A stretch of DNA of 64,000 nt from positions 248,001-312,000 of the forward strand of contig JAPEUD010000018.1 of NCBI GenBank assembly GCA_026026165.1, read 5' to 3'. Positions 17,864-49,598 of this stretch are shown in pieces. The DNA is from Sarea resinae (Eukaryota). A model generated the notes under the pieces. That model was not told where the DNA came from. It did not search any database and was given only the letters and a program-made list of their open reading frames with translations. Positions within the stretch are counted from its first letter, which is position 1. Each line of letters opens with the position of its first letter. Made by a program: the position numbers and the translations under genes.

Positions 17864-17956
17864 TGGACGAATTGAGGATCGAACTCAAGGCCTCCCGCAG
17901 CTCCGAATCCGGGGACTTGTTGCAAAGCGGGCGCTCTACCACTGAGCTATACGCCC
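17864..17956 (-). tRNA. tRNA-Ala(UGC) with a 21-nt intron
   Basis: Minus strand: GGGCGTA TA GCTC AGTGGTA GAGC G CCCGC TT TGC A [ACAAGTCCCCGGATTCGGAGC] T GCGGG AGGCC TTGAG TTCGATC CTCAA TTCGTCC A. Folds as a cloverleaf with the G3:U70 alanine identity pair and the intron after position 37. Confidence 0.95.
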
Positions 17957-20054: not shown

Positions 20055-21175
20055 CTAGATATAGATACAGTTACAGATATAAAACCTAACCCTCCTCTAC
20101 TACCTCTAGAGTCAGAGACAATTATATATCCTGTACACTTTTATACCGTCCCTACTTAGTCCTCCACTCACTCACTCGGATTCACCTTCTTACTCCTCTA
20201 CTCACCCGCCCTCTATATATTACCCTCTCTACCTCTCTCTCCCTCTTTCTAGGCGTCCGTTTTGTTTTTCCTATCCCCTCTTCCTCTTTGTCTTAGATAG
20301 ATGTGTCTGCTAGTAAGACTAGAAACTTAGAATTTAAAGGTTAGAGAGTAGGGGTTTGTGTTAGTAGTAGTAGTAGTAGTATACTCTTTTCTACTATCTA
20401 CTATCTACTATCTACTCTAGAGTACTCCTACTACTAGCAATATATTGTATAGCTATTGCACAGCTATTAATTACACATCTATTAATTGCATCTCTAGCTA
20501 GGTAGCTCGTTAATTATCTCTTACTAATCTACTTAATCTACTTAAATTCTATTCTGCTATAATTATCTATACCTAAGATAGATAGAGAGGTTTAAAAGTG
20601 ATAATCTCTCTCTCTCTCTATCTATATCCTTTATCTTATTCTCTATTAAGGATCTAGTATCTACACCTACCCTAGCACTCTAGGGCTATAGCTACCGACA
20701 CTACACTACACTATAGTATATCTAGGTAGGTATATCTAGATATATCTAAGTAATTATGCTATTCGCCTCTTTTCTTCTTCTTCTTCTTCTTTAGCTTCTA
20801 CTTTTTTAATTTCTACTACTACTATACTAAACACAGTAGCTTATACCTAGACTAATAATTATATTAAGTCTCTACTTATAGTACTTTCTAGACTAGAATA
20901 GATTACACCTAACACAATAAACATTATAAGAGTAGTTTGATTTCTTAGATTCTTAGTAGCATCTAGCTATAAAAGAAGAAAAAAAAATAAAATCAAATGA
21001 ATTAGAGATACTAGAAGATTAAGTTTAGTATAATACTATAAAGAAGAGATTTTTGAAAGCAGGATAGCGGAATGACTTTAGGTAGGGTGTAAAGGGTTGG
21101 CTAGGACTGCGTAGGCGGTTAATAGATAATTAGATGAATAGCGAGCTAGATGACTGGCTATTGATACTATTACTA
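20055..21175. other. AT-rich island with RIP-like dinucleotide signature (TpA excess, CpA/TpG depletion)
   Basis: Abrupt fall in GC content; dense TAG/CTA/TAA; the ORF track shows nothing of 60 aa or more across about 1.1 kb, unlike the flanks. Confidence 0.8.
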
Positions 21176-25480: not shown

Positions 25481-26368
25481 GTGCCTCTCACCGTCTGGTG
25501 TGTCGTCTCTCGTCCGGCCGTGCTCGAGTGGAGGACAAGTCGGAAAACGAAACGAGGCACCCAACACGCATCCATCACGTCCATCACATCCAGCCCGCGC
25601 ATCACCAATAACACATCGATGATCTAATTGATGCCTGCAACGCCTGCCCGTCGGCCACGCGAGCTGAATCGATTTTCCGGTTCTCGTCCGCAGACTAAAC
25701 CACTCCTGGTAGCAAGGGCGATCAAGCATGATGGGACGCCCCCCAGTCATCAGCATTGCATTGCATTGATTGACTGATTCATCCGGCACAGCCTTGTCCT
25801 CCACCGCCCACCAGATGCCACTCGTATTGACCGACGGTGACGATGATGGTGACGGTGACCGTCGTAGAGTAGTGCCCGTCTCTCTTCTCTGCGCTCTCGC
25901 CGTCCTTTCTTTGTTCTCATTGGTAGCTCTCTCAGCGTTACATGGACCGAGAATGCCCCGGTGCCCGAGTCTCAGCCCATCCACCGCCTGTGCACCTTTG
26001 TTCGTCTTGCACACCTCATCGCCTGGCTTGACCGTCTCCATTCTACGAGTAATGTCAGTGAGGTCAGGCAGGCCCTCGGCCCTCCGAGCTAGAGCCACAC
26101 CATCGAAGTTCCGGAAACCCCCAATCTTTCAACGTCCGTGGGGTGTCACCGTTGATTAATCTCAGCCCAGCCAAGCCAACCTCAGCCCATCTCATCTCAT
26201 CTCATCTCAGCCTACTTAAAGCCATGGAGCCCGTCCTTGCTGCTCTTGGTTATCGACCCTGTGATCCTGGCTGATTATCTATCTTACCTACCTAGCACAC
26301 TGACGATCCAAGTGGCACTTCCACTCTTACCTGCTCTTTCCACCTCGCGATCCTTCCTCATCTAGACC

Positions 26369-27490
26369 ATGCCTCCCCACAACGACGCGCCCTCGCCGGC
26401 TTCAAGCTTCGACCAGCGATTCATCAGCAGCAGGACGCTAGGGTTCGCTCCAGACTCAGCTCGAGAGGCAGTTGGCTCCATATACGCCCATTCTCAGTAT
26501 AGCGATTCTTTCGAGACGGCATCCTTCGATTCGGTCGACGATATGGCCCACCGACCCTTGGTACCGGGAGTCCACGTTCCGACTGTGGCCTTCTTCGACA
26601 AGGTCACCGAAGAGCTCGACCTCGAGACAGTTGGGAAGCACGCTGTCCGTCTTGCCAAGGCCGGTGTTGCTGGCTTGGCCACGCAAGGGTCCAATGGCGA
26701 GGCCGTTCACCTTTCGCACAACGAGAGGCAACAGGTCACACGGACTACGCGCAAGGCTCTCAATGATGCCGGCTTTCATACGCTACCTATCATCGTGGGC
26801 TGCGGCGCCCAGTCGACTCGTGAGACAATTGACCTCTGCCACGAGGCTCTCCGATCTGGAGGGGATTACGCATTGGTGCTTCCGCCATCATACTACAAGG
26901 GGTTATTTAAATCGGAGTCGATAGTCGAATTTTTCCAGGACGTTGCCAATGCATCCCCTATTCCTATCCTGATCTACAACTATCCCGGCGCTGTTTCGGG
27001 TATCGATATGGACTCAGATGTCATCATCGAATTATCCCAGCACCCCAATATTGTGGGCTGCAAGTTCACATGCGGCAATACCGGAAAGTTGAACAGGGTA
27101 GCCTCTGCGACTCGAGCAACCACGCCGACGGAACCTGGCAGCGGATTCATGTGCTTTGGTGGGTCGGCCGACTTTGTTCTGCAAACTCTCATCGCCGGTG
27201 GTTCTGGCATCATTGGCGGATTGGCAAACATTTCACCGAAAGCATGCGTCAAGCTTATCGATCTCTACTCGGCTGGTAGCATCAAGGACGCTAAGAAGAT
27301 GCAAGCCATCGTCGCTCGAGGCGACTGGGCAGCCATAACCAGTGGCGTCGTTGGCACGAAGAGCGCCCTCGAGACATTCTATGGATATGGAGGTTATGGC
27401 CGCAAGCCTTTGCCTCGGCCGACGAAGCAGGATGTTTTGAAATACACGGAAGGCTTCAGGGAATTGGTCGCGCTCGAGAAGTCTCTTTAA
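26369..27490 (+). CDS. DHDPS/NAL-family class I aldolase (related to L-threo-3-deoxy-hexulosonate aldolase GaaC/LGA1 and 4-hydroxy-2-oxoglutarate aldolase)
   Basis: Intronless 373-aa ORF. PGVHVPTVAFFD, QGSNGEAVHL, LVLPPSYY, IYNYPGAVSGIDMDS, Schiff-base Lys in NIVGCKFTCGNTGK, YGYGGYGRKPLP. A second ATG at 26543 sits at the start of the conserved core. Confidence 0.9.
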   Translation: MPPHNDAPSPASSFDQRFISSRTLGFAPDSAREAVGSIYAHSQYSDSFETASFDSVDDMAHRPLVPGVHVPTVAFFDKVTEELDLETVGKHAVRLAKAGVAGLATQGSNGEAVHLSHNERQQVTRTTRKALNDAGFHTLPIIVGCGAQSTRETIDLCHEALRSGGDYALVLPPSYYKGLFKSESIVEFFQDVANASPIPILIYNYPGAVSGIDMDSDVIIELSQHPNIVGCKFTCGNTGKLNRVASATRATTPTEPGSGFMCFGGSADFVLQTLIAGGSGIIGGLANISPKACVKLIDLYSAGSIKDAKKMQAIVARGDWAAITSGVVGTKSALETFYGYGGYGRKPLPRPTKQDVLKYTEGFRELVALEKSL

Positions 27491-30400
27491 GATCTTGCAG
27501 CACGTGAAGGTGTTTACTGTTATGACTGGGTTGCTATCTACTTTTGGTTGCGTTTCTTTCCAAGTTTGCACAAGGACTAGGCGCAAGGCATCAAGGTACG
27601 GGAGTTCTGTGTGCTTCCTATTTTTACCCTGGAGCCTTACTTTTTGGGTGGCATCTTTTTATTCTGAGGACGGCATTGGAAAGTTGTTTGGTTGTCTTGT
27701 TTCGAAGAGTCCGAAAAGTTTATCGCCATGCGCTAAAACACTTTTCGTTTGCTGTCGAGTTCCGAGGATCACTGCACTCAGCTCGAGCAAATGACTGTAA
27801 ATATTGGGCAGCGCGCGCACAATAATTCCATGATATACCTCAACATCATGCTCCCATAAGAAGTAGAACGGGTAGCTTATAATGATCCTCTGAGATCAGC
27901 AAACGCGTCGGACCCCGGACGAACTCTTACATGGCCTTTGTATGATAATGCCTCTGAATCCCGCTCCAAATGAACAAACCGGGACATCTGGCTGAGCGAG
28001 CCATCCTGAGATCCGGGATTGATGCCCGAGCATGGGTTCTAGTTTTACTATGCGATTTTCGACTGACGTCTCTGCCACCAAGCACTAACTCTTACAGGCC
28101 AGTCCCATGAACATTAGTTGGGAACATCGAAGCTGCCAGGTGGCGAGGCATCAGCCGTGCCCAATCCGGGATATAGTACGAGGTTACGTACAAAAGACAA
28201 ACCGTGGCGATCATACAGACGGTCTGAGAAGGATACAGATTCAAAGACCTTATCCGCAGTTAGACTACCGTGACTAATTGAAGTTATTGAAAAGGCCAAA
28301 ACAACACATGAGCCGGATAGTGGAAGAGTGCGCAGTAGATGAGCAAGTAGACTGCGAACTGGCTCCGCCCAAGCCACCAAAAGTTAAAGACTGACAGTAT
28401 CATCGCGCATCCCATACAACGCAAAGAAAACATACATGAATCTGTTGCCTCTGATGCCTCGACCAACTGCCGACACCACACCTCCGTCCACTTTCGTAAG
28501 GGTCTGAAGACTCGCCAGCCCTACGGGTGTGTTCTCGTTCTGAGAAGGATTGCCACCGCCGGCCCTCGACGGCGGCGAACGAGGGTCCAGGGACCAAAGA
28601 CGAACAAGAAGTGCATTCAGAATCTGGCCAGCTGGGGTCTTCGGCGCTGCCACACGGTGGCTGGCAACAGTCTAGAAGGATGCCTGGGAAACTCAATATT
28701 ACGTCACGCCGGCCTCAACACCAGAAGTTGGCTTTGACTTCGTCGGCGCACGGTCACTTTGCCGTGTCGCTCCCCCCTGTGAGATTTGCCTCCTCCATTG
28801 GCTGGCCCACGAATGCGAGTGAAGCCCTCTCTTCTGCAGATGACCTCACCAGGGCATCCCATCTGACGGAAAAGCACGATGCCAGATGGCTGCTCTCTCC
28901 ATTCTCTTTCCTTCTTGAGTATGGAACGGGAACAGAAAGGATGTCCATCGTGTCGACTCGACGAAAAATTTCAAGAAAGCCTCAGACCACCAGTCACTCG
29001 AACGTCCAAACAGCCTGTGGGGTAATCTCATAGAAATCGCTTAGCAGGCCCTTGCTACGATCATTCGTGTGCAGAGGGCGCAGGCCAGATGCCATGTTCC
29101 TGAGCTTCTGATCCGGTCTAGGCTCTGGGCCCCATGGGGAAGCCGAGGAACGGCCATGCGAGGGTTTCTGTCGCGCCCAACCCAGTGGAATATGATCGAG
29201 GGTCGCTCCGACTTGCAAAGATATTGTGGCTGAAAGCTTGCATCGCTTTCTTGACCAACAAGTGCAGCCGAAGAGCGCCTCCCTTCCTCTTAGCCCTAGA
29301 CGATGACACAGTGATCTGTCTCTAGCATCAGTCGGATCGGGCTCAATTCCCGAACGGCGTTCCATTGGCTCACGACCGCTCAGTTTGGAACTTCATAGAC
29401 GACATTGGAGGTCACGCGTGTGCTCTGGTTTCCTGGAAGGCTAGCAAGTTAACGCTTCATGCGCTTCCCAAATCTTCTCCAGTTGCTCCTAACTGCAAAC
29501 CGCCGAGGGTCCGGCCTGGCCATATCTAATCGGCCCGATGAGGTTTTCTTGCAAAGACGCAGCTTCAATAATAATGCCGACCTTTGGCGCAGATATCGCT
29601 GATGTGCTGCGGATATTGCCCGTCTATGGGGGACCCTGAAGCAACAGCACAGATCTAGATTTTCGCTCTCCATACACCGTCTATGAGTTACCACAAAGAG
29701 TATCCACCCCATCATTCGCACGCCTCATTTGCAGGGAGACCTTTGGATCTCCCAGGCGTACTGAGTACATGAAAACACCATTAAGTCGGACAACAACGTT
29801 TCTACCGCAAACTCGTCGACCCAAAGCCAATAATGTGGATGCATCACTGCGGCATATACATTCTCGTTGGTCGTCCTAGCGACCCAATTCTGCTTCGGAC
29901 GTAACCAGTAGATGCACTGGTGGATTTTCCCCAGCACACATTCTCGAGGTGGCCAGATATGCGCCAATATGCGGCATCGGTATCCCCTAAGCTACTTCTG
30001 GCATGGTAACAATACTCTTGCATTCGACGCTTGGAGGATTTTCGCCGTGGCTCGTCTTCCCCACAACTCACTAGCGCACTAGCGGCTGCCCTAACCGTGG
30101 CATTTGTTCGAAACCTTGATTGGGGACGCATGATGCTATGGGAGACCTTAACCAGTATGTTGTTTACTCTGAAGAATGGAGAGGATAGAGTCATGTCAAG
30201 TCAAGAGGGGCCACGAATTTACAGAATCACGCTCACGGTAGCAGCATCATAAGTTGGTAAAGCCCTGAATGCGTCCTAAATCGGCCGCAGGCGGCCACGG
30301 AAGCGAAAATGATCAGGGTCTTCGGGGCCAAAATCAGCCCTGGCCACACGAGCGATTTCGCTCTACTACACACCACGGGGCCAGAACTTCCTTGCTTAGG

Positions 30401-30959
30401 ATAGGTAGGTAAAAGTAGTGGCCTTGTAGTAGCTTTTAGCGCGGATCGACCCCATGGGGAGGCTGGATTAGCTCCAGTCCCCGGACTTGGTCTTGGTGCG
30501 TCCCTGTTGGGTTATCATCACCCGATGGTAGAGCGTTAAAGTCGCAAGCGATGGCGGATCTACGCTAGGATCAGAGTTCTTGCGGACTTACCACGGTAGT
30601 CAGGTGCGGCGACGGAGTATGGGTATGGGTATGTGGTGGTGGGTATGGGGTCTTGTCTTTGCTACTGCCTTTTGTTGTCAGTGCGCTCACTGTGCCGACC
30701 GTCGGGTTGCTGCAGCTCTTTGTATGGCCGGCGTTTCACTACATAAACAATGGGCGAATCCCAGGAATCCGGACCTCTATCCTCTCTCTCTTTCTCTTCC
30801 TCCATCCACCCATTGACTCGTTCTACTTTCTCACTCGATCACTGAGCGACTGAGTGAGCATAATTGGTGTTTTGGACACGTTTTCTCTCTTCAGTTGAGC
30901 ACAATATAGCTTGGCCGAGCTACACCACATTACACTACGCTCCGTCTCCCTCCGCAGCC

Positions 30960-32810
30960 ATGGGCCTCATGCTCAAGAAGCCCGAGGGCACGCCGGGCTC
31001 GGCTCTGCCCGCCATCCTCATCGGTCTCTTTGTCGCCTTTGGCGGTATCTTATTCGGGTAGGCCACCCCCTTTTCGTCTCGTCCTCCGCACCAGCATAAG
31101 AACAGTAATCTAATCAGAGAATGGCGACGACAACAGATACGACACGGGCACGATTGGTGGCATCCTGGCGATGAAAGCATGGCGCGAGCAGTTCTCGACC
31201 GGCTACATCGACCCCAAAGATGGCCTACCCAACGTCAACTCCAGCCAGTCGTCCGAGATCGTCTCCATCCTGTCCGCCGGCACCTTCTTCGGCGCCCTGT
31301 TCGCCGCCCCCATGGGCGACTATCTCGGTCGCCGATGGGGCCTCGTCGCTTCTAGTTGGGTCTTTATTTTCGGTGTCTGTCTACAGACTGCGTCGACCGG
31401 CATTCAGCTCTTTGTCGCAGGAAGATTCTTCGCTGGCTTGGGAGTCGGTCTGGTGTCTGCGCTGGGTGAGTCACCTTCCCTTAATAATTCCCAGTTTTTG
31501 TTGCTTTTTCTCCTGTCCCTCACTCATAAGTCTATCCATCTATACAAGATCATACTAATACAATCCCGAATGACACAGTCCCTCTGTACCAGTCGGAAAG
31601 CGCACCGAAATGGATCCGTGGCACGGTTGTCGGCGCCTATCAGCTGGCCATCACAATTGGACTTCTCCTCGCCGCCGTCATCGACAACAGCACCAAGAAC
31701 AAGACCAACACGGCCTCGTACCGGATCCCCGTCGCGGTTCAGTTGGCATGGGGCCTGATCCTGATCGCTGGCATGCTGGTGTTGCCCGAGACGCCACGCT
31801 ACCTCATCAAGCGCGGCAAGTCGCAGAAGGCGGCCAAGTCGCTGTCGCGGCTGCGGCGCCTCGAGGTCGATCACCCCGCCCTCGTCGAGGAGTTGGCCGA
31901 GATCCAGGCCAACCACAATTACGAGCTCACGCTCGGCCGGGCCACGTATCTCGACTGCTTCAAGGGCACGATCGGCAAGCGGCTCCTGACGGGCTGCCTG
32001 CTGCAGGCGCTCCAGCAGCTCACGGGTGTCAACTTCATCTTCTACTACGGCACTTCGTTCTTCCAGTCGTCCGGCATCACCAACTCGTTCGTAATCTCGA
32101 TGATCACGTCATCGATCAACGTGGCCTCGACCCTGCCCGGGCTGTACCTGGTGGAGAAATGGGGCCGGCGGCCGCTGCTGCTGTTCGGCGCGGCCGGCAT
32201 GGCCGTGTGCCAGATCATCGTCGCCATCGTCGGCGACACGTCGTCCAGCGTGGTCAGCAACAAGGTGCTCATCGCCTTTGTGTGCATCTACATCTTCTTC
32301 TTCGCGTCGTCGTGGGGCAGCGTGGCGTGGGTGATCACGGGCGAGCTGTTCCCGCTGAAGGTGCGGGCCAAGTGCCTCTCGATGACGACGGCGTCCAACT
32401 GGCTGCTGAACTGGGCCATCGCCTACAGCACGCCGTACCTGGTGAACACGGGCCCGGGCAACGCGGGGCTCGAGAGCAACGTCTTCTTCATCTGGGGCGG
32501 CTGCTGCGTGCTGTGCTTCATCTTCACCTGGTTCCTCATCTACGAGACCAAGGGCCTCAGCCTCGAGCAGGTCGACGAGCTCTACGCCAAGGTCGGCCAC
32601 GCCTGGCAGAGCAAGGGATTTGTGCCCACCGTCAGCTTCCAGGACGTCCAGGATGCCCATCAGGATACCCGCCAGTTCTCGCTCGCCGACGTCGAGGCCG
32701 GCGCCGCCCAGAGGCGCAAGAGCGAGGTCGCCGGCGGCCAGCCCTTTGTGCAGGAAGTCGAGAGTAATAGCTCGGCTGGAAATGATGTTGTCATGCCCGA
32801 GAAGTACTAG
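30960..32810 (+). CDS. MFS sugar porter, RCO-3-type glucose/hexose transporter clade
   Basis: Exons 30960-31057, 31137-31465, 31579-32810. FGGILFGYDTGTIGG, GDYLGRR, VPLYQSESAPKWIRG, PETPRYL, QQLTGVNFIFYYG, EKWGRR, ETKGLSLEQVD. No long Snf3/Rgt2-like C-terminal tail. Confidence 0.95.
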
Positions 32811-33345
32811 GCGTCTGTGCGTGTGTGTGCGTGTGTGTGCGTGTGTGTGTATAGTTTGAATTGTGAGGAATAGTCAGGTGCGCACGGGCGAAATTGGGGG
32901 AGTTCCTTTTTTTTTGTCTCTTGGGATCGGCTTGTCTTGTATAGTCTACATTATGATGATGATGAGACGAATGACTCCTTTTTCTCAACTCTTAGAATCC
33001 AGTCGCATGCGTGGACTTTTCCTTCCGTTGCTTGAAACCAGTGGTTGGAAGAGGGCTAATCACTCCCTCATCTCCGTCGTCAGCCGGTCCATCCCTTTCG
33101 TAGTATTCTCTCTATCCGTAGATTGACGACAGAGGGAGGGAGAGGGAAGTAGGCATAAAGGGTAGTTCCTTCAACCATCGACCGTATTGAGGACCATATT
33201 GATATCATATAATATCTATGCATACGGGACCTACCAAACTAAGTAAGGTCGAATGTCAAAGGCACGACACGACTTCCAAATACGCATAAGCATGACCAAT
33301 ATCAACATCAAAATCAACATCATCATCATCCACAGCGAGGCATTC

Positions 33346-34320
33346 ACTCTCTTATCAGCGTGACGCGCCGCGGTTGCTTGCTTATCGGTTTGTTTTGGCT
33401 AACTACCAAGCAGCCAATCAGAAGCTGGATGGGCATAGAGGTCTGGAATCAGGGCGGTAGGGAGACGCGACGTGACAGCTCTGAGACGTTCGACGATTTT
33501 TGCTCAAAATGCAGACGGTGGGGGGAGAGTTGGGCGGTGGCGAATTCAGAGACGCCAAAAGGGATAGGGCAAGGTGGGTGAATGTGGGGATTAGATTAGC
33601 TCCAGATCCTGTGATACTAGATGTCCTAGATGATAGGTAAGATAGGCACGAATTCCTCTTATATTGATCTAATGCGCTCCCTTATCAGCGCGACGCGATT
33701 GCTTATCGCTTCCATTTGTTGTGTTTCTCCTGCCACCAGCAGCCCTGCCCAATCAGGAGTCCAGAAGAGGTAAACAGAGAAAATGGAGGGCGCTGGGAAG
33801 ACGCGACGTGACAGCTCTGAGACGTTCGACGATTTTTGCTCAAAATGCAGACGGCGGGGGAAGAGGGTGATTGAATGCCAAGGTGAATTTTATATACTCT
33901 CTTATCATCGTGACGCGGTTGCTTATCGGTTTTGTTTTGAAGCTGTCAGGCAGCCAATGAGAAGATGGATGGACATAGAGGCCTAGAATCAAGGCATCGG
34001 GGAGACGCGACGTGATGGCTCTGAGACGTTCAACGATTTTTGCTGGAAATGCAGAAGGTCGAGCAAGAGGGTGAATTTAGATGAGCGGAGAAGAACAGGG
34101 CAGGTGGGTGAATGTATAGGGGGTCCTGAAAGTGAATGTCGAAGTAGTCTTCATATGCTCCCTTATCAACGTGACGCGCCTGCTTATCGGTCTCTGTTGA
34201 CCGGCTGTCAAGCAGCCAATGAAAAGTTGGGTAGACATATACTCCAAAAAACAAGGAGCTGGGGAGACGCGACGTGATGGCCTTGAGACGTTCGACGAAT
34301 TTTGCTCAAAATGCAGACGG
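33346..34320. repeat. Four-unit complex tandem array (periods 330/220/261 bp); each unit is CTTATC..GACGCG..CTTATC..CCAAT followed by a 57-bp core
   Basis: Cores (g/a)agacgcgacgtga....gagacgttc.acga.ttttgct..aaatgcaga.gg at 33462-33518, 33798-33854, 34002-34058 and 34264-34320. Confidence 0.92.
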
Positions 34321-34495
34321 CGTGAGAAGGTAGTAAATCTCCGGCGTAGCCATAGCATTTGTCAATACAGGTATATGCCGGGCAAAGTCACGCGATGCCA
34401 CCACATATTCTCTCGGAGAATGGGAAAGGAAGAGCAAGAGCTGATTTCTACCCTTTACATGAGCCCATCCCGACTACCCGGTATCACTGGCTCTA

Positions 34496-36010
34496 TCAAC
34501 AACGGTCTAGATCTCTGCGCCGGGACTGGCCAGGCCCTCCATCTCTCAGACTTATAGCATCCTCAAATCTTTTAGCCAGGTTCAACAAGCCAGCATCGTT
34601 GCAGCACCCAGCTGTGAGCGTAATACTGAACGGCAGCGGCCTACTTTGATGGTTCCCACTACCCTCGAGTATATTATACGTGCCAGCTGGTACTGACACC
34701 GCGGGCAGGTCTAGCACGTTGGCGAACTGGGTATATGTGCCCAGAATTGATCCCATACGGATAGGATCGGCCAGAACGTCAGAAATCGTGAAATGGCTTG
34801 GCGTTGTAGGCGTAACAATGATGGCAATTTCATCTTCAGCGTCCCCATGCCACTTGAAAAAGGGCCCCACATTGCGGATCAAAGTAGCTTGAGCATGGAG
34901 GTCGCGAAAAGCCTGGATGGCAGTGTCGTTGCGAGCCAAAGCCTCTTCGAAAACCTGGCGAGTGACAGGATGAAAATGCTCGAGTTGAGTTTCAAGGAAG
35001 CCGTCTGGAAGATCAGCTATGCGTTCGGAGAGAAAGGCACCACCATAGAGCAGTCTGCCCGCTTCTTGGATGTCATCCCAATTGATAGATATAGAGGGAC
35101 TCAAGCTTTGTTTCCCACCAATAGCTTGGAGTATGTCGACTGCCAAGTCAAACATCTGGCGGTAAGCTGGAGAGCAGGCCTCCAGTAAACTCGACGGTGG
35201 GATGACGAAAAGGAAATCTTCAGCCGGACGGGACGGATGAGCAGATCCGCGAAAGCCCTGCTTTGAGTGAACGTCCTTCTCGTCATGCAGCGTCTCCATG
35301 CACGAATGCCACACCCTTATAGCATCATCAAGATTCCGTGCTAGTATGCCTACGCAGTCCAATGATGCGCAGGCCGGTGTGACGCCGCTGGCAGAAATAA
35401 GACCTTTGGTAGGCTTCAGCCCGACTACACCGTTGAAAGCAGCAGGCACCCGCACCGAACCTGCAGTGTCGGTGCCAATGGAAAATGAAACAAGATCAGC
35501 ACCCACGCTGACGGCACTACCACTAGAGGAGCCGCCGGTAATGTATTCTTCACTATATACAGATCGAGGGATGCCGTACGGACTGCGGCAGCCCGTGAGG
35601 CCGCTGGCTAACTGATCCATATTGGTCTTGCCAATAAAAAGCGCACCTTGTCTAACAAGTTCTTCAAAGACGGTAGATGATTCATGGGGTGAGCGGGTAA
35701 AAGGCGGGCAAGCCGTGGTGGTAGGAATGCCGGCAACGTCAATGTTGTCTTTCAAGCTGAATGGCACGCCGTACAAAGGCGGCAGGGAGTCTTTGTTTGG
35801 AAAGTGGGTGGGAAGGATTCGTGCAGCTGAAAGTACAGAGGCTTCTGGGACACGGTAAATCCACACTGCAGGATCACGATCGTGATATACTCTGATCCTT
35901 TCTAGGACCGTCTCAGCAATCTGCACTGGAGACGTGCCATTTCTGTAGAGGGCTGCCAAGGAAGAAATGTCCAGACATGGCTGCCAAAGCGGAGCCGGTG
36001 ATGAAGCCAT
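34496..36010 (-). CDS. Stand-alone allophanate hydrolase-like amidase-signature enzyme (AtzF / Dur1,2 amidase-domain type)
   Basis: Intronless 504-aa ORF. Catalytic triad motifs LYGVPFSLKDNIDVAG, GGSSSGSAV and GTDTAGSVRVPA; allophanate-hydrolase-type PTTTACP, GKTNMDQLASGLTGCRSPYG, LLYGG...ER and LGTYTQFANVLDL. No urea carboxylase domain. Confidence 0.88.
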   Translation of the reverse strand: MASSPAPLWQPCLDISSLAALYRNGTSPVQIAETVLERIRVYHDRDPAVWIYRVPEASVLSAARILPTHFPNKDSLPPLYGVPFSLKDNIDVAGIPTTTACPPFTRSPHESSTVFEELVRQGALFIGKTNMDQLASGLTGCRSPYGIPRSVYSEEYITGGSSSGSAVSVGADLVSFSIGTDTAGSVRVPAAFNGVVGLKPTKGLISASGVTPACASLDCVGILARNLDDAIRVWHSCMETLHDEKDVHSKQGFRGSAHPSRPAEDFLFVIPPSSLLEACSPAYRQMFDLAVDILQAIGGKQSLSPSISINWDDIQEAGRLLYGGAFLSERIADLPDGFLETQLEHFHPVTRQVFEEALARNDTAIQAFRDLHAQATLIRNVGPFFKWHGDAEDEIAIIVTPTTPSHFTISDVLADPIRMGSILGTYTQFANVLDLPAVSVPAGTYNILEGSGNHQSRPLPFSITLTAGCCNDAGLLNLAKRFEDAISLRDGGPGQSRRRDLDRC

Positions 36011-37921
36011 GAAAACAGATCAAAAGAGACTCCGGATTGCTAGCCTGGGAACGAAATCACACGAAGGTAGGAATCAGCTTCGACAGGGGCCTAACAAGGC
36101 GTGGAAAGGCTTCAATGTGCCATTTCTTCATAGAGATAACAAGACATGCAGAGACATTCATCTGCCTTCAGCAACACAAGATAGAGGAATGCAGGATCTA
36201 GACATTCATGTTCTCAACTGGATGGTTGCTGGGCCCGGGTGAGCTGTCGGGCATTCGCTGCCGACAGGACGATGAAGCCAGGTACCTTATGAAGCTATTC
36301 CGAATACCTTATCCTGACGATGAAGATGCAGCTGAGCACCTGACTTGGCCCATTCGACGACGACACAACGTCATGCCGGGGAACAGCCCGTCCAGTCCCA
36401 CGACCAAGGTCGAGTCCTCGGAGTAGGTAAGGTAAGGTGGTCTCGAGTCGAGAAAGGATCTGGGCCCCTCGCGGGTTATTATGTAAAACGGATCCCCACG
36501 AAGACGGAGATCAGGCAAGATCGGGTAAGGGTGGGGCGCGGAAAGTGGTACTGCGAAGACATGGAATACCTGAGAGGACCCGGGACACAAGTCCTTCGCC
36601 AGAGGAGATACCATGGTGGAGGTACAGCAAGGCCAAGTAGCGAGCAGGTGTCGGCTGCTGCGATCGGTACTTCATCATCATCCTCAGAGCCACCAGATCT
36701 CGGACGACGACTCTGGAGTAGGTGACACGACTGATAATTAGGGAGATGGGATTGGCTCACATGCGATCCTTATCTCGCATTAGCCGACGGTGGCTCCCCT
36801 CTAGGCGTACGACGGAGCACGGCGTCGTTGATGGTGGAAGTCCCCCACCTTCATCCTGCGGTGAGGAACGGGCCAAAAGGTGAGGTGAAGTGACTTGGGG
36901 TCCCAGTGGCATCCAGGAACCAGAGTGACCGCTATCGGTCGCCCTTTTCCTCCTTGGGTCGCGTGCTGTTGCTCTTATTCAGGTGTCTGCACTCTCTCAG
37001 GTAATGATATCAGATCTGAATCTCGTCTGCACCCAAGGGGGCATTTATCTTACGTCTTGGGAACTCGAGAGGAGTAAGAGATGGGCGTTGGCATGCCCTG
37101 GCCCATCAGCCTCTGTGCCCTTGGGCTCCCCCCCCCACCGGCCCGTTACCGGCTCGGTCGGTGACCGCCCCTTCGTCCTGTGTCGAGCACCAGTAGACCC
37201 AGACCCTGATCCATTCGCCAGCGAGAGTGCTATCATCTATCTGTCTGGATCGAGTAGTCCTATCCTCACTCGTACCTAATAATAATATCATCTCTATCTT
37301 CTGCATATCTCTGCGACAAGACTCTCACTCCCTTTGGATCCAGAAGTGCCAATTGCCAACCACCAACCGCCAACTGCCATCTGCCATCTGCCATCTGCCA
37401 ACTGCCTACTGCCTATAGCCCACCCCCTCGGTGTCCTTGACTTGAAAGCAAAGACTTTCCTGACCTTGCTCACTCCTCCGCCTACACTTACACCTACACC
37501 TCATTCCACTGCCTTACCTGTCATTACGTTAAGAACTCCCTCCGGTCCCTCTATCTGCGTATCTCCGTGTATGCCAGGTTCGTGACAAGGGCAATTGGAG
37601 CTTGCAGCTGCGATGACAGCGAGATCCCTTCGTTATCTCATCCTCCTCCAATCTCTGGCGGGCTCATCCAGCGCCTAAGACTTTCCTTTTAACTCCTCGG
37701 ACGACGCCGTCAAACGCCTGTGACCTTGCCTGGGCTTGCCTGGCCTTTCGATAAGACTTCGCACTCACGCTGCACGACTCAGTTCGTGGGCCACATACGC
37801 ACACCAGCGGCCTTGCAGGTTGCGGATTTGCTTCTTCGAGGAAGCAGACCTGTCACATCCATCTCCAGTCGCCTGCGGATTGGCGCCCTGGCTGCACATC
37901 TACTTCGAGGCATGATCGAAG

Positions 37922-40268
37922 ATGACAACCGCAGTAGCCTCTTATTCCCCCATCGCCCAGCCAATTCCAGTCTCGATCGCCTCTGCACGTCTCGGTCCCA
38001 AGCCCTCAATGTCGAGCAAGGAGGCTCCGATAAGGCCCAATGATGAGATCCTCGCGGCGGCCGACGCCGAAGCCACCAACGCTCGAAGTCGGCGGGATCG
38101 GCCATGCGACGCTTGCCGAAGACGCAAGAGCCGATGCGTGATCAACGATGGGGCCAAGAGCTGCGTCATGTGTGATTTCCACGGCCAGGATTGCACGTTC
38201 GTGCAGGAGCCTCAGCCCAGGAAGAGGAGGGCAAATCCCAATGTCAAGGAGGAGGAGCCGTCGAAGAGAAGGTAAGCTGAAGCTTATGGTCCCCCCCGCA
38301 CACTCTTACGACATCCCTCTGATCCCCGCACCATTGCAGGTCCCCTGAAGTTTCTTCACACCCGAAGCCGCTACAAAATGCTGCGGCGGCACCCTCTCCG
38401 AAGACAGAGGAGCCCGAACCGACCGCCACAGAAGATGTGCCACCACCCACGAAGTCCCTAGGACTCCAACCTCATGCCCATAGTAAATACGTGGGGCGGA
38501 CCACCGAGCTCGAGCATGCTTTGCTAGATCTCTGTGACTTTGATTGCAATGATGAGAGTACCCTCTCTTTTGGTACCCTTCGACGAGTCAGCGACAGCGA
38601 CACCTTTCTGATGCTTCCGGATAAGGAAACTCACAGTCATGAGGACGAAATTCGCGATCTGGAAGCCCTTGAGAGCATCGTCGCACCCCATGGGCCCGAC
38701 TTGGTGAAGCTGTACTTTCGGATCGTGCATCCAAATTTTCCCATCCTGCAAAAGGAAGTCTTCCTAGAACAATATTCCAAGCCCGAAAAAGAAGTCAAGC
38801 CTGCTTTGTTGGCTGCGGTCTATATCCTGGCGCTGAACTGGTGGGCACGTGAGCCCAATTTAGCTTCTCATCCGACTCCAGAAGTAAAGGACCTGGAAGC
38901 TATTGCTCTGAAATGGATCGGCGATGTCACCCAACAGCCAAAATTCTCCACAGTGCAGGCGGGACTACTGTTGCTGCAGCGTCCGGAAGTCGAGCTATGG
39001 AACATATGTGCCCAACTCTTGGCCTTTGGACAGGAGCTAGGTCTCCATCTCGACTGCACGAGCTGGCGGATTCCGACCTGGGAACGTGGGCTCCGGAAGA
39101 GGCTGGCCTGGGCGTTGTATATGCAAGATAAATGGAGTTCGCTGGTTCAAGGTCGGCCTTCACATATCTCGGCCGCCAATTGGGCGGTGAAACCTCTGGT
39201 CGATGAAGATTTTTCCGAGTCCATGGCTGAGGATGAAAAGGATGACGATACTTCGGATGTATCAAAGGGGAAGACCCTTTTCAGTCAGATGATCGACCTC
39301 ACGCGTATCCTCTCGGAAGTCTTGGACACTTTCTATACGCAGAAGGCGATCCAAGAGGTCAACAGTGCGGGTCGAGAAGGGACGCGACTCATCCTTGAGC
39401 GAGCAAAACCAGTCCAGATCAAGCTCAAGGATTGGTTCTCACGACTGCCAGCTTGCTTGAAGATGGATAACGTGCAGACGGGTAGGCTGTCGGCGACTGG
39501 TAAGTGACTGCAGAAGGAGGGATCTTGGGCCATATACTGACTTTGCCAGGCTATCTGCATTTGGCGTATTTCGCAACGGAAATTACCCTGCATCGACGCA
39601 TCGTCCGGTCTCTTACCTCGAGTGGAACTGATCCGTATCTGGTGCATATCTGCCGCTCCGCTGCGAAGACTCGTCTGATATCGGCCATGGACTTTGTGAA
39701 CCGGCTCCGACCAGAGCATCTTCAATCCTTCTGGTACTTCACATCCAAAGTTAATTTCACGCTGATCGGCACCTTTGGAACTCTTCTGCGAGCTACGGCG
39801 CCCGTAAAAGAAGAGGCCGAGTTCTATCAGACGAGGCTGAGGGAATACCGATGGACGCTCAGCGTCAGCAGCAAATCCGCCAAATTTCTCGACTTTGCCG
39901 TAAGTAGACTGATTGCTTCGTCGGCCGCGCTTAGAAACATGCCGGAAAAGCCGTCGCTTTCCCTCGAGGCGTCCTTTGTTGGCGGCCCGCCGAGCATGAT
40001 GCACATGAGCAAGACCATCTCCCCCCCAGGAGAGGGAGAAGACGAAGACATGACGGATGTGCCTCCCGGCGTTGCATTCGACATCTCCGGTTCGGCTTTC
40101 TCGATGCCTCCCGGTCTCTCGTCCGAGCTCATCGATCCTTCGTCTGGCCTGGCGTCGCCGTCTACCTCGTCCACCAGCAGCGCGGCTCCATATGAGGCGT
40201 CGATTGGGCCGTTTAGCAGCCATGGCACCGAGGGATCTGTGGATTTTATATCGGGAGGGTGGGCATAG
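37922..40268 (+). CDS. Zn(II)2Cys6 transcription factor, Dal81/TamA family
   Basis: Exons 37922-38271, 38340-39499, 39550-40268. RDRPCDACRRRKSRC...CVMCDFHGQDCTF; YFRIVHPNFPILQK; ELGLHLDC..WRIP.WERGLRKRLAWALYMQDKW; GYLHLAYFATEITLHRRI. Cannot distinguish the TamA orthologue from its paralogue. Confidence 0.88.
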
Positions 40269-43104: not shown

Positions 43105-45286
43105 TTACATCACCACGCACTCCTTTTCTTCTTTTCCACCCGCACCCTTCTTGAGCTTCGTTTTCGGTCCCGCAGCTCCAGGATTACCCGTCTCTCCCGA
43201 TGCGGCGGCTTGAATGACGGCCAAACGTTGCTTGGCGCGCTCGTCGCCTTCACTCGCTGCCTTGACGTACCATACGTTGGCCTCCAGAGGGTCGCGTCGA
43301 CATCCGATGCCCATTTCGGTAAAGTAGCCCAATGCATACTCTGCCTTGGGGAATCCTACGAGAAGAATTAGCAATCAGGTCGTCACCAGTACTCATGCTA
43401 AGAAACACACCTGTTTCCGCAGCCTTCTTCGCCCACTCATACGCCTCATTCTCATCCTTCTCAAGCACAGGCTCAGCGCCAACCATGTACCAAGCACACA
43501 GAGCCATCATAGCAGCCGGGTGGCCCTTTTGCGCTGCGCCATTGTAGAAGTGAACACTGAGAGCCGGATCCCTTGGACAACTCAGCTTTCCGTGCTCATA
43601 GGCATCACCCAATCGATAATTGGCTTCGGCATGACCGAGATCTGCAGACTGAGTGAACAGCTGAGCAGCATAAGACTCGTCCTTGAATATATCGTCGCCA
43701 TATCCGGATTCATGCAGCACACCCAATTCATAGGGCGCGGAATTGTACTGGAAATCGGCAACCTCGGTAGCACGTTTGAGCCACTTGATCCCCTCGCGAT
43801 AGCGATTGGTGAGACCCATGTCGCCCGTCAGGCAGGCCTTTGCGAGACGCATCATAGCCCCGGGATGGTTCTTGGATGCAGCTTGACGGTAGAATTGGAC
43901 AGCTTTGGCCGGATCCTTCCGACTGCCCCACCCGTATTCGTAACAGATAGCAGTCCGATAGCCAGCTTCCGCATGACCATGCTTACTAGCTGCAACGAAC
44001 AAACCAAAAGCTCTATCATAGTCTTCCTTTCCTCCCTTGTTGAAGAGGCCTGAGGCATAGCCATCCGCCAAGTAATACTGCGCAAAGGGATAGCTCCGGT
44101 CGGACAGTCGCTGAAGAATGTGTCGTCCCTCCTTCAGCAGCTCCGATCGAAGTGCTGCAATATCAATAGGATCTTCTTCCTCTTGACCCTGGCCAGGGCT
44201 TGGCTGTTGAAATACCGAAGAAGCGTCATCTTTCGATGCCCGGGCAGCCAATTCCTGGGCAGTATTGATCATGAAGACGGCAAATTCATACTGGACCGAT
44301 AGGTCGTTGGTCTTTTTAATGTTCGCTCGATACATATCCAAAGTCTTCTTTGTGCCAAGCAGCGATGCCTCAGTCCCAACCGCTGTCCGGAGATGGGTGT
44401 CGTCAAAACTTGTCGGTACAGGAGGCGCTTGTGGATATGGAACGTTCAGAAGCTCGACATATGACGTTGGCCGGGCCTCGTTCGCGGAGAGCCCACGAGA
44501 AGAGCTCCGCAACCCTCCCTGCAGACGAGGTGAAGGTGTTCGTCCTCTCGAGACCGATCCGAGCGAAAGGGTCGACGCTGGTCGCCCCAAGGACCTGAAA
44601 GCAGGTGAGTTGCCATTTGGAGATAGATGCTGGCCTGTGAGGTCACCACCAGCAGAAGAAATTGGCGAATTCGAATTTGACGAATGATTGGTTCCAAGTG
44701 ATGCTCGAAGATCTGTTTTCAAAGTAGGACGCTCCTGGTATGACTGTTGATAGAACTGTAATTGTGGAGCCCCCCCAAGGCTGACGCCAGATGAGTGTTT
44801 GTAAGTTGGGTTGCCATTCCAGCTTTCGTCGGCTTTCGGCGAGTCTGAGCGATCGTCATCGACCGATGAAATGATACCGACTTGAGGCTGTAGTAGTGAC
44901 CTGGCATTATTCGTCGAGTATTGGTCCCTGAAGGGAATTGTGTGTTGTGGAGGCGCTGGGGCGCGATGATCATCACCGATGTTGACATCGTGCGCGTCGA
45001 GCTCGCGAGATCCAGAGGCGCGACGGTGATCGAAAGAATCCGAGAAAGACTCAATGGTCGCAGATGAGGCTTCCGGATGGCTTTCCTCTGACGGAAAATT
45101 GATCTGGACAGGTGACAGAGGCGAGTCTTGAAGTCGTGCCATCGAGTAGGACGGAGCGGGCAGAATTATCCGTGGAGACGTACTTGGCGAAGGTTCAGCG
45201 ATGTTCTCTTTCGACGACTCTCGATCTCCATACCTCGGGGCTGAATCCTTGACTTGAGGCTGCTCTTGAGTAGCAGCGGTAGCCAT
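43105..45286 (-). CDS. CHS4: Chitin synthase activator Chs4/Skt5 (SEL1-repeat protein)
   Basis: Exons 45286-43411 and 43355-43105. TLDMYRANIKK, PFAQYYLADGY, ASKHGHAEA.YR, AASKNHPGAM, LCAWYMVGA, KAEYALGYFTEMGIG. Ends in CaaX box CVVM. Confidence 0.95.
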
Positions 45287-48200
45287 GGCTTCAGGATCGC
45301 AGGATGTCCGTAAACCAGCACGAGCGACTTGGTTCCAAGAGAGTTGTACGCAGCGGCAGGTTTCTCAAGCCTCAAAATGATGAACAATGGTCTTTGATGC
45401 AGGGTTCACCAAGCTGATCTTCCTTGCACATGCGTCAGAGCGAACCAACAGTGAGCGTGCCAGGTAGATTATGAAGGTGGGCGATTGCTTCGAGAGGAAG
45501 AGAGCGAGATCAAGCTACCGTGAAAATCCTGGACGTGTCAAATGCAGTGAACGGATTCAAATGTGCTCTTCGTGTCTAGAAACTGCCGGAATGTCAGCCC
45601 CTATGGTGGTATGACTGTGCTCCTTTCCGCACTTGGTCGACAAACTTCCTAGGACTGTTGTCATGGACGTAACGGCGCCCCTTCCCGTGGAACGACTTAC
45701 TTAGAAATTACCGACTCTCACAGTCTTCCGCAAATGTATATTGGTGTTCCCAAGCCAGCTCCAACTCGGAAATATTCAAAATCGAGGCACTGATTATACC
45801 AAGCACGCGGTCGTCAGGATAGCTCGCCAACCGCCCCGGAGCCCTCTAATGTATTCGAACGTCTATCCAGATCCAAGATTACGGAAATGTTCAGCGAGGG
45901 CAGAATCCTATATGCAGACAGTCGAGAAGGATTGCGATGGTTCCCCTTGTGACACGAGCATGAGACGTCTCTCCAGTCAGGTAATTTCGCAAAAAGGCCG
46001 TGGGCGTCAAGTGTGAAGGCTGATGCAAACAGGACGTTCAATTTCTTCCACGGACGTCGAATCGGGCTCCAATACCGTTGTTCGGTCTGTACAGATCGGA
46101 CGCACTGTGTGGGCGGTGGTCACAGCCGCAGGGAAGGTCCAGGATCAGGTCCAAAAGCTGCAGCTGGAACCTTGTGGGGAAGATGCAGAGAAGCACGGAA
46201 CCCAGCAGAAGAGGATGACGGAGGGCTGGGCGAGGGGTCGGCTGTGTCACGAACCGGCAGCTTAAGCGTCCCAAGCGTCTTCTTTCTTTGTTCACCGATG
46301 CCGGTCACAAACCCAAGCACACATCGATCTCGATGGAGATGAGAGTAGACCAGAAGGCGGCAAATGGAAGATGGAGTGAAGCTCTCTCGGATTGGACACA
46401 GGAGGGTAATGGTGATATTTTTGGGACCAGAGTGGGGGGGAGTGCTCTGTTAGCATTGGATGTATGTGGTAGGAGGTAGTCAGGTAGGCAGGTGGGAGCA
46501 GTATCAAACGTCAAAGCAAACTGATGCCACTACGACACCACTCGACTTCTCCCTGGGAGGAACGAGTAGGCAACAGCAGCAGCACCAGCAGTGGCAGCCC
46601 AGCAGCCCAGCAGCCGCCGCCCACTGACTAATGGTACGGTTGGTGGTGGTATTTTACAGCATCGTATTGGTAGAGTCAGGCATTGGTGTTCGAGACTGCG
46701 CGCGCGCTAGAAAGAAGATTCCGTGCTCGATGAAGTACTACTCTTGGATGACTCTAGCGGAGCGAGCGAGGGAGGAGTGTGGCGCACCGTGTACTCGGAG
46801 TACTATGAGTATGTAGTAGAGTACGCCTCTGTACGGAGTAGTGCTCCAGGTGTGTGCTTTTCGCTGCGATTGCGACAGAGAACCACCTCAAAGAACAGCT
46901 GGAGATGGATCGGATGCGCCCACACACCTTTAGCGCAGGGGCCCAGTCGCCTTTGGGAACCGCCCACGTTGTTGGCTCGCATTTACTTGCCGATTTCTCA
47001 GCTCTTTTCGTACGACACGACCCTCTTTGTCTCTACGCACCTCCAACGGGCGCGAACCAGGTTGAAAGGAGTAAGAAAAAGCGACAAGCCGTCAACAGCG
47101 TCCAGTCGACGTCGCCACGCCCATGCCGTAACATCAGTCCCTGAGTCGGGATGCCGTCGGTGGGCGTGCTGTCGAACGCTTTTCACATTGGCGACTTTTC
47201 TTGAGTGTTCTTATTACATACGCGTTGCGAAGAGTACGTAACGGCGATCGATCTCTTAGCACGGGTGGGTCTCGTCGCGGCTTGACCGCAAGGGACATCG
47301 CTTTTCAGAATTGTGAGAACAAACGCCGGCCAAATCCTCGGTGCGGGAAGCGGAAAGAGATGAAAACTGGGGCAATGAATCCACGAAGGGAGCCCATAAG
47401 GCCATTTCCCCTGGGAGGAGACGAGTCATTCTAGACCCTCTTTGCTGTTCCTAGGGCACTAGGAAACATCTTTACGGTGACCATCACTTTCCCTTCTACC
47501 CTAGGTCTCGTCGGTCACAATATAAGCATGCCCGTATTCCCACTGCAACAGCAACAACATCATCATCATCGTCATTATCGATACGGAGGTCCCACCGTCG
47601 CGAACTTTGCTATCCTCTGCAGTTCTCGAGCTTCACACGATTGGCCGTAGTCAGTGAATAGCTTAGTAGGATGACCCGGGACCGAAAATCCCTCTCGGCA
47701 CCGGACCAGCCGGAACATCGTATGTTTCACCTGCTGGAGTAGATGGAGAAATTCGGCTGCATTTGTATTCTAGAGGATGATCGGATCTGAAGGTGCCCAA
47801 GGGGAGAGACAATGGCCTCATTTCGGCCACGATATTTAATTCCTTTTCATCCCAATTCCCATTCCATGAGCATGAAGATGGCCAGGGATCATGAGTATTG
47901 TACATACCTACGGTACTAAGGTATTCGATAGAAGTCCGTACGAAATCACACGACGTCACCCATCTCCGAACGGTGTCGGGGGAGAGGGGCCGACCCATGA
48001 CGATGTACGAGAAGAGGCAAGGATCATCCATTCTTCCTCTGTGCTCTTCAGGGTGGTCAGGCTGGCGCCATGCACAATCGCCATCTGGGATCAGTGGATG
48101 CTCGCAGGCCGCACAGGGTACAAGCAAACGCCGTACTACGCCGCGAGGGAGGTGTCTCCGCAGCAACCAAGTGCGGCCGACCCTTCCAAAAATAACGGGA

Positions 48201-49598
48201 AGGTGTGATCGAGGGAGGGCGACACGATATACGGCCCTTGTAGTCGTGGTAGAGGTACGAGTTGCGAGTTGTGCATGTATAAATAGCATTAGTAAGGTGA
48301 AGTCGCAGGATGCGTCGGTACTTGCGAGGAGGTTCTCTCCTCGCTGCTCTGGCCGCCACCAGCGCGGCCCGAAGCAAGTGGAGAGACCTGACTTCAAGGT
48401 ACCTTCTGACCCTCGAGTACGACGAGCAGAAAAGTCTCTCCATGTGCAAGCTCGGTCGGTGCGCTAGGGAAAGCGGTCCCTGTGCCTTTGCGCCCCTTGT
48501 TGCCTGGGAACCCTGGACCCTAACCAATCACCTCTCATCGCCCCGTCACTTGCCCTTGGACCTTCAGCGGTGCAGGTACCTTGAACATACCTAGGACTCC
48601 TGGCAAAACCGTACTGCATCTTGAGTACTCGCGCGGTCCAGCCTGGTCGCCCCTTCCCCTTCCCCTTCCCTTTCTCTTCCCCTTCCCACGCCTTGCCCTG
48701 TCCCTGTCGAAATACTGCGAGTAGGTGCAAATTCTCCCCCGCTTACATAGTACGCACCCAAGGCGCAGCTTCCCGTACTGTGTACTCCCTACAGAACGTC
48801 CACACCACCCGGGGGAAGTCGTCGAAGTATCGCTACCGCGGGCAAGTACCTTAGCGTGCTCATCCACACCTCGACAGCGCCTCCACAGATCTGCTCAGAT
48901 GTTTTCCCGAGTTCGATTCTGCTGCCTTTGGTCGTGATATCCCTTCGAATCGTTGTTTGCTTACCTTGCACTACATCCACTCGTTTCTTGACATCCCATA
49001 TCCTTATCCGTGTCGGGCGGTCCCCATCAGCAACACGCCCTTCATTTCAACCGCGTCGACGGCTTTCCACCAGCGAGGCCCACGACCAGTCCTTCGTTCT
49101 GCCGTCACCCTCGTTGATAGGAGCGGCCGTCCATTCGGTCTCGTCTCCCGGGGAACCTCAACTTGGCCATTCGTGGTGTGCCGGATCTCTGTACAGTACT
49201 ACCGTCCCGACTTGGTTATCTCGTCCACGCTCGCTTTTGGATAGATTTGATAGACGGAACTTCGAGACGAGTCTGACCCCAGGCGACGAGTCCCATCTCC
49301 GGAAGATCCTAGGTCGTTCGTTGTAAATACTTGAAGACGTCGTTGCTCGGTGCGGATTGTTCACATCACACCCCGACCCGGAGCGAGCTGCTTCCTCGTT
49401 CTTAGTTTTGCCAGTCTTGCGAGGTCTTCATTCGTGACTCGTGCATCAAATAATATCTGAGCGAGATTTCTTGTCTCTGGAGGACAAGGTCTCTATTTGT
49501 AAGTTGCAGCGTCAAAGGTTCCTCGTCAGATGTCCTCTACCCTTGCACCTGCTACCTCACAGAGGAATGTGGCTGACATTCTTTGATCCGGCAGCATC

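Follow-up and report, generated by a model that had tools for sequence, protein, structure and literature searches.

The window (the entire 64,000-nucleotide stretch of DNA that was analysed) contains an array of four head-to-tail non-coding units at about 33337-34338, located within the 1.7-kb gap between the convergent 3' ends of a transporter gene and an amidase gene. Beyond the array, at least seven contigs of this genome carry related modules in other arrangements at single-copy depth, and these contigs may represent only one to three loci since contigs break at repeats. The array thus appears to be one member locus of a modular repeat family that is dispersed and low in copy number. As the best, if still tentative, explanation we propose a low-copy dispersed family of modular tandem repeats which is satellite-like or derived from a mobile element, and whose conserved blocks would be protein-binding, promoter-like sites.

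The units start at about 33337, 33661, 33881 and 34142, have lengths of 220-336 bp and are built from five parts. The first part is a GATA block of 37-46 bp, in which two CTTATC motifs (HGATAR on the minus strand) enclose a GACGCG (33362, 33692, 33912 and 34173). On the plus strand, the CTTATC motifs are positioned at 33351/33381, 33681/33702, 33901/33922 and 34162/34183, which corresponds to a spacing of 21 bp in units 2-4 and of 30 bp in unit 1, whose GATA block carries a 9-nt insert. The second part is a linker of variable length (32-47 bp, the GATA-to-CCAAT distances being 33, 47, 32 and 33), which leads to a CCAAT box at 33414, 33749, 33954 and 34216, respectively. The coordinates of the CTTATC and CCAAT motifs are all exactly those first reported in the original prediction, which had also placed a GACGCG between each CTTATC pair. 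The third part, a 45-bp linker between CCAAT and core, is almost constant in length and free in sequence, and the CCAAT-to-core distances are 50, 51, 50 and 50 bp. The fourth part is a stretch that had been described as a 57-bp core without indels; it is indeed free of indels, and its length is 80 alignment columns (33450-33529 in unit 1) rather than 57 bp. The central 60 bp of this stretch form the core as defined here, and from the CCAAT to the end of the indel-free stretch only a single 1-nt indel occurs among the units. The core consists of two ACGT elements in an imperfect palindrome, followed by TTTTG-CT-CAAAA and an ATG in the context CAAAATG, and it harbors the second GACGCG of each unit (33464, 33800, 34004 and 34266). 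The sequence ACGCGACGTGA occurs four times in the window, in each case inside the array, and the near-palindrome ATTTTTGCTCAAAAT is found in copies 1 and 2, where it had been noted before (33496 and 33832), with the shorter TTTTGCTCAAAA being present also in copy 4 (34300). The fifth part is a purine-rich tail of very variable length, in which GG(C/G)CA(A)GGTGGGTGAATGT appears in units 1 and 3.

All four units are read here on the plus strand. Unit 1 (33337-33660) is the longest, with the GATA block at 33342-33387, the CCAAT at 33414-33418, the core at 33459-33518 and a long tail that contains GGCAAGGTGGGTGAATGT at 33568-33585. Unit 2 (33661-33880) is the shortest and has the most diverged spacers; its GATA block resides at 33672-33708, its CCAAT at 33749-33753 and its core at 33795-33854. 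In unit 3 (33881-34141), the corresponding positions are 33892-33928, 33954-33958 and 33999-34058, and the tail motif is GGGCAGGTGGGTGAATGT (34098-34115). Unit 4 (34142-34338) has its GATA block at 34153-34189, its CCAAT at 34216-34220 and its core at 34261-34320, and with this unit the right end of the array fades about 160 bp before the amidase stop. The left edge is abutted by a (CAACAT/CAT)n microsatellite (33297-33330), on which contigs of other organisms pile up, and a (TG)n / TGTGCGTGTG microsatellite is located directly after the transporter stop (32816-32850). In the 3' region of the amidase gene, at 34404-34440, CATATTCTCTC followed by AATGGGAAAGGAAGAGCAAGAG might be a fifth, internally deleted unit remnant; AATGGGAAAGGAAGAGCAAGAG has 77% likeness to the last part of the core of unit 3, and the candidate is at chance level and was not recovered by the unit HMM.

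When the unit HMM was run over the 64 kb, it returned these four units only (E 1e-54 to 6e-60; next best match E 0.12), and neither this model nor separate HMMs for core and GATA block detected a second array in the other 63 kb of the window. Within the window, a 28-nt core pattern (four matches versus 0.00 expected from 100 shuffles) and a GATA-block pattern (four matches versus 0.16 expected) likewise occur only in the array. Eight of the 20 CTTATC motifs of the window belong to the array, and its four pairs are the only ones on the same strand within 30 bp. As the four cassettes are copies by descent, they have to be regarded as one observation plus its conservation and not as four independent ones. 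A repeat search recovered four copies of 152 nt with 62-76% identity at spacings of 336, 204 and 262; the array was not reported by Tandem Repeats Finder, because whole units are too diverged at this degree of likeness. Public runs were aligned to 31000-36500, and in the one from which the assembly probably derives (DNA run X1) contigs match the array without differences and cover every unit junction, with none of them spanning the whole array.

Conservation among the units is blocky. Pairwise identities amount to 88-97% in the core and 81-89% in the GATA block, compared to 52-65% in spacer 1 (GATA block to CCAAT), 41-78% in spacer 2 (CCAAT to core) and 44-78% in the tail. Invariant ungapped columns make up 78 of the 97 columns of GATA block and core versus 23 of the 78 in linkers and tail (Fisher p ~1e-11), a p value which flatters the contrast because the blocks were delimited after the alignment had been seen, and which comes from four copies only, so that the statistics are thin. 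The proposal that conservation focuses on the core and on the motifs that had been named is thus borne out, and the motifs are better kept than the spacers, which is the opposite of the pattern that had been named as the sign of neutral decay. Unit 2 is an outlier outside the core, its spacers being identical to those of unit 1 at 16 of 37 positions, yet its core is identical to that of unit 1 at 58 of 60. This mosaic, with 97% identity between the cores of units 1 and 2 and 43% between their spacers, indicates that gene conversion between units occurs, and conversion alone could explain part, not all, of the core conservation. The substitutions comprise 40 transitions and 24 transversions, with 17 multi-state columns, which argues that the divergence is not of the RIP type.

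It might be argued that the array is a neutrally decaying local tandem duplication, in which the blocks result from patchy gene conversion and the matches elsewhere are unrelated or trivial. Such a history would agree with the conversion evident from units 1 and 2, with the ordinary spectrum of substitutions and with statistics that are thin for only four copies. However, the core is 88-90% identical also in unit pairs whose spacers are 59-78% identical, the CCAAT-to-core length is kept despite about 50% substitution, and modules with the same sharp edges recur on other contigs even though divergence of the flanks there goes beyond 80%, all of which makes neutral decay an unlikely explanation.

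The evidence for related modules elsewhere in the genome comes from the alignment of run X1. Depth in this run is 344-367 in the flanks and reaches 789, 416, 707, 1114 and 1568 in five bins over 33392-34311, part of which may stem from the array's own contigs on sister units, as five records fit two places. The other contigs among the joints listed, which carry GATA block and core modules, have depths of 343.4, 350, 368.5, 333.3, 306.2, 352.7 and 335.8, while the array's own contigs have depths of 363.1, 267.7, 326.4 and 344.6, none of them equal to the depth of any other contig. Since the other contigs are at single-copy depth and distinct from those of the array, they most likely represent other places in the genome and not a second haplotype. 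They contain two or more modules in tandem order, and these orders vary. On the contig with a depth of 333.3, a core is followed by a GATA block (34159-34191), a second core (34258-34303) and the pre-GATA spacer, the CCAAT segment being skipped. Record 7 (61 nt, 3 differences) and the contig with a depth of 352.7 have core followed by core, and the contig with a depth of 350 has half a GATA block followed by a core. Record 3 (3419 nt) matches over 109 nt from the second GATA site through the CCAAT to the core, has a further joint of core and tail and thus combines pieces from several units. As is evident from loose ends before 34258 and behind 34312, likeness of at least 80% stops at the core edges, beyond which the sequences are unrelated or strongly diverged. 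By eye, likeness to the linkers and to the GGTGGGTG tail motif persists in some of the flanks on other contigs, as is to be expected if the uneven conservation also holds across loci.

Of the four options considered in the original prediction, that of an array belonging to an unrecognised mobile element gains most, because related modules reside on these at least seven contigs of the same genome, but neither a TIR nor a TSD was found. The only inverted pair in 32500-35500 stems from the CAT microsatellite, the array is not flanked by direct repeats, and no Pfam domain indicating remnants of a transposase, reverse transcriptase or integrase is present in the 22 long ORFs between 21 and 52 kb of the window or in 28 ORFs of the gap. 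By these usual marks, the array is not a bounded transposon. It does have what characterizes a satellite-like family, that is, head-to-tail units, no coding signal and modules on other contigs. A tRNA or SINE origin was considered and rejected: ARAGORN returned nothing in the array, and by eye the GTTCGA of the core equals the centre of a B-box only. Elsewhere in the window, ARAGORN called a 93-nt tRNA-like gene on the minus strand (17864-17956) with an unassigned four-base anticodon (gcaa); bacterial settings were used for the call, and the gene may be a tRNA that contains an intron.

In none of the reading frames of the units does variation cluster at third positions, and stop codons show no depletion, with counts of 58 and 54 versus 59.8 and 53.2 in shuffles. 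None of the 28 ORFs of at least 30 aa in the gap reaches any Pfam cut-off, two ORFs of the array used as queries retrieved nothing among 5.8 billion proteins, and unit lengths and indels break every reading frame. The notion that the units are relics of a small protein-coding gene or exon that was duplicated in tandem is close to refuted by these data and can be considered highly improbable, even though one plus-strand frame (GRRDV[TM]ALRRST...) runs without a stop across the four cores and has six synonymous-only versus nine amino-acid-changing codon columns, and the plus-strand ORFs are somewhat long (the sum of the top four was reached in 15 of 500 shuffles). A reading as pheromone precursor or CAAX peptide was also rejected, no such ORF being among those listed in the gap. 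The ORF that follows CAAAATG is inconsistent, with 43, 9, 11 and 4 codons in the four units.

With respect to RNA, Rfam yielded no family at E values up to 10 beyond three sub-threshold chance matches (17.7-20.3 bits, E 1.3-5.9), and eight folds covering both strands had z-scores of -0.57 to +2.0, indicating no stable RNA structure. The covariation check that had been suggested for the four cores was carried out; the consensus folds of -8.75 and -5.11 kcal/mol contain compensatory changes in 0 of 15 and 0 of 11 pairs, respectively. Accordingly, the option that the array encodes repeated small RNAs is left without support. It might still be imagined that each unit is a small transcription unit, consisting of a promoter and a short RNA, either non-coding or encoding a micropeptide, with its start inside the core or close to it, and that the family is a dispersed set of such units. 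The core would suit this role as the best conserved part of the unit and as a discrete module at other loci, the CCAAT is fixed 50 bp upstream of it, and where units 3 and 4 have TG in place of CA, two predicted pairs persist as G-U on the plus strand. Against this stand the Rfam result, the z-scores on both strands, the lack of compensatory change in the predicted pairs and the absence of a conserved ORF, and we regard such transcription units as improbable.

The gene to the left of the array encodes an MFS sugar transporter (Sugar_tr, E 1.4e-102; 31114-32810, plus strand, stop 32808-32810) and the gene to the right an amidase-signature enzyme (P0003, allophanate-hydrolase-like, 504 aa; 34496-36019, minus strand, stop 34496-34498), both of which end towards the array. 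The original prediction had correctly placed the array between two convergent 3' ends, with the hydrolase stop (34496-34498) 176 bp away from position 34320, and inspection of the ORFs agrees with its statement that no gene starts in the gap. Its assignment of the minus-strand gene to the allophanate hydrolases stands in so far as this is the best-scoring family, but the score remains below the cut-off (423.7 versus 487 bits), and amidase-signature enzyme is the designation kept here. The protein covers only positions 7-453 of 600 in the allophanate hydrolase profile and does not have the C-terminal part of that family. The C-terminus of the amidase is normal, and a truncation by the array was rejected, as homologues share this endpoint and carry the isochorismatase domain that they have in addition at the N-terminus. 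This domain (PF00857), which many amidase homologues possess, is absent from the amidase studied here, and among the 120 best matches to P0003 no homologue exceeds 53% identity. The array lies inside a possible catabolic gene cluster (26366-40265), whose members are a DHDPS-family enzyme (26366-27487, plus strand), the MFS sugar transporter, the amidase and a Zn2Cys6 / Fungal_trans regulator (37916-40265, plus strand). Further away, a Sel1-repeat protein (43253-45364, minus strand) is encoded near a chitin synthase with a CHS4-like domain (49587-52346, plus strand), and an AT-rich low-complexity stretch at 20300-20720, unrelated to the array, contains short tandem motifs (CTACTAT, GTA and CT runs) and a cluster of GATA-like sites. 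In the RNA run X2 (wood-decay metatranscriptome, 92-99% relative), contigs extend over the transporter to 33053 and over the amidase from 34430; none is located on 33392-34311, which is no evidence of silence, and the contigs carry no strand.

AreA/NIT2 prefer at least two HGATAR sites within 30 bp, as stated in an excerpt of PMC4246892. The HGATAR pairs of the array, 30, 21, 21 and 21 bp apart, follow this spacing rule in all four units. The extended consensus of the CCAAT-binding complex is RRCCAATSA, and it is matched in three of the four units (33412, 33952 and 34214), with GCCCAATCA in unit 2 and three other such sites in the window. In both respects, HGATAR pairs at a distance of 21-30 bp and candidate CCAAT boxes of which three of four fit the consensus, the array is similar to the AreA/NIT2 sites and CCAAT boxes of filamentous-fungal promoters. 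In contrast to such promoter sites, the array is positioned between two 3' ends, is a fourfold tandem and has modules at other loci. On the plus strand, the order of GATA, CCAAT, 50 bp, core and CAAAATG would resemble upstream sites, leader and start codon, and the pyrimidine-rich tracts on the minus strand together with TATATAAA in unit 3 may point to an alternative polarity. The array is downstream of both neighbours and not in the 5' region of either gene.

Given such motifs, the array might be a host cis-regulatory element, in which the cassettes would bind AreA-type GATA factors and the CCAAT-binding complex and act as a 3' enhancer or as a nitrogen-responsive antisense promoter directed from unit 4 into the amidase. 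This possibility is consistent with motifs that are conserved and of good quality, with GATA pairs that satisfy the spacing rule, with the promoter-like order on the plus strand that ends in CAAAATG, and with a neighbouring allophanate-hydrolase-like amidase as a plausible nitrogen-catabolic gene. It is rendered doubtful by several findings: the density of HGATAR in the array (10 per kb) is also reached in other 1-kb stretches of the window (9-11 per kb), the promoters of the transporter gene, the amidase gene and the adjacent Zn2Cys6 gene share no motif of at least 9 nt with the array, no consistent ORF follows the ATG, and the modules occur at other loci in other arrangements, so that the cassette is not specific to this gene pair. 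From the latter, we infer that the cassette is a feature of the repeat family itself and did not arise for the control of either the transporter or the amidase gene.

A repeat of this kind may be compared to several known systems. In the TR34/TR46 alleles of Aspergillus fumigatus cyp51A, as far as described in excerpts of two reports, a promoter piece with transcription-factor sites that include a site for the CCAAT-binding complex is duplicated head to tail (PMC4954732, PMC9239056). The array is similar in being a head-to-tail duplication of a piece that bears transcription-factor sites, which are putative in the present case. The cyp51A repeats are 34-46 bp long, recent, near-identical and located at one locus 5' of the gene they regulate, whereas the units of the array are 220-336 bp long, old (62-76% identity), 3' of both neighbours and part of a dispersed family. 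By analogy, the array would work like the cyp51A-type tandem promoter duplications, but it is no member of this group. In mouse L1, 5' arrays of tandem monomers of about 200 bp, each with promoter activity, are found at many loci by way of the mobile element; the array differs from these in that no element body, ORF or 3' end is attached, in that its host is a fungus and in that its units are candidate promoters. Minisatellite and satellite families, and tandem arrays derived from non-autonomous transposons, have head-to-tail units at several loci, a variable composition, conversion between units and short conserved boxes. As a class, the array fits these minisatellite- or satellite-like families or transposon-derived tandem arrays, with the differences that its copy number is very low, that it has no TIR or TSD and that its conserved boxes coincide with recognisable fungal promoter motifs.

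Searches were also extended beyond this genome, and none of the collections covered yielded a copy of the family. In metagenome contigs, core patterns gave 0 loci and then five loci matching over 21-26 nt only, which is at the level of chance. The same is true for prokaryote genomes, where seven Bacteroidales MAG loci matched over 23-32 nt in one conserved bacterial stretch, and in viral contigs 0 loci were found. Literature matches to three core strings include, as far as titles and abstracts tell, none on fungal repeats and are most likely incidental, e.g. primers. Two runs of other organisms from the same study (X3 and X4) have next to no depth on 33392-34311 at 80% likeness, which is no evidence of absence.

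In the explanation favored here, that of a dispersed family of modular tandem repeats, a unit would be composed of modules, namely the block with two GATA sites, the CCAAT, an ACGT-rich palindromic core (about 60-80 bp) that follows 50 bp downstream of the CCAAT, and sometimes the GGTGGGTGAATGT tail motif, and these modules would be connected by fast-evolving linkers of variable length. It might be hypothesized that arrays arise and change through unequal crossing-over or slippage, that the units trade sequence through gene conversion, and that the modules are kept because proteins bind them, in which case a unit would be comparable to a small Pol II promoter or enhancer cassette. The present evidence shows constraint on short modules plus dispersal, not function. 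That a complete promoter-like cassette, with GATA pair, CCAAT at a fixed 50 bp and ACGT-palindrome core, has been copied in the form of tandem arrays to several places in the genome and has been kept there by selection would, at this stage, be a rather bold claim with a small chance of being correct. If it were true, a regulatory module that is mobile or spread by recombination would reside beside unrelated genes, here between two convergent ones, and the cassette would bring along nitrogen- or iron-responsive transcription, or sites that serve as transcription-factor decoys or as boundaries. If the blocks do not work as binding sites, the array would belong to a low-copy repeat family of the ordinary kind, whose main use would be in repeat annotation and as a marker. 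If, on the other hand, the blocks work as binding sites, the family would exemplify how a promoter or enhancer cassette spreads naturally within the genome of a fungus, and at convergent gene pairs such spreading could give rise to antisense transcription or rewire expression.
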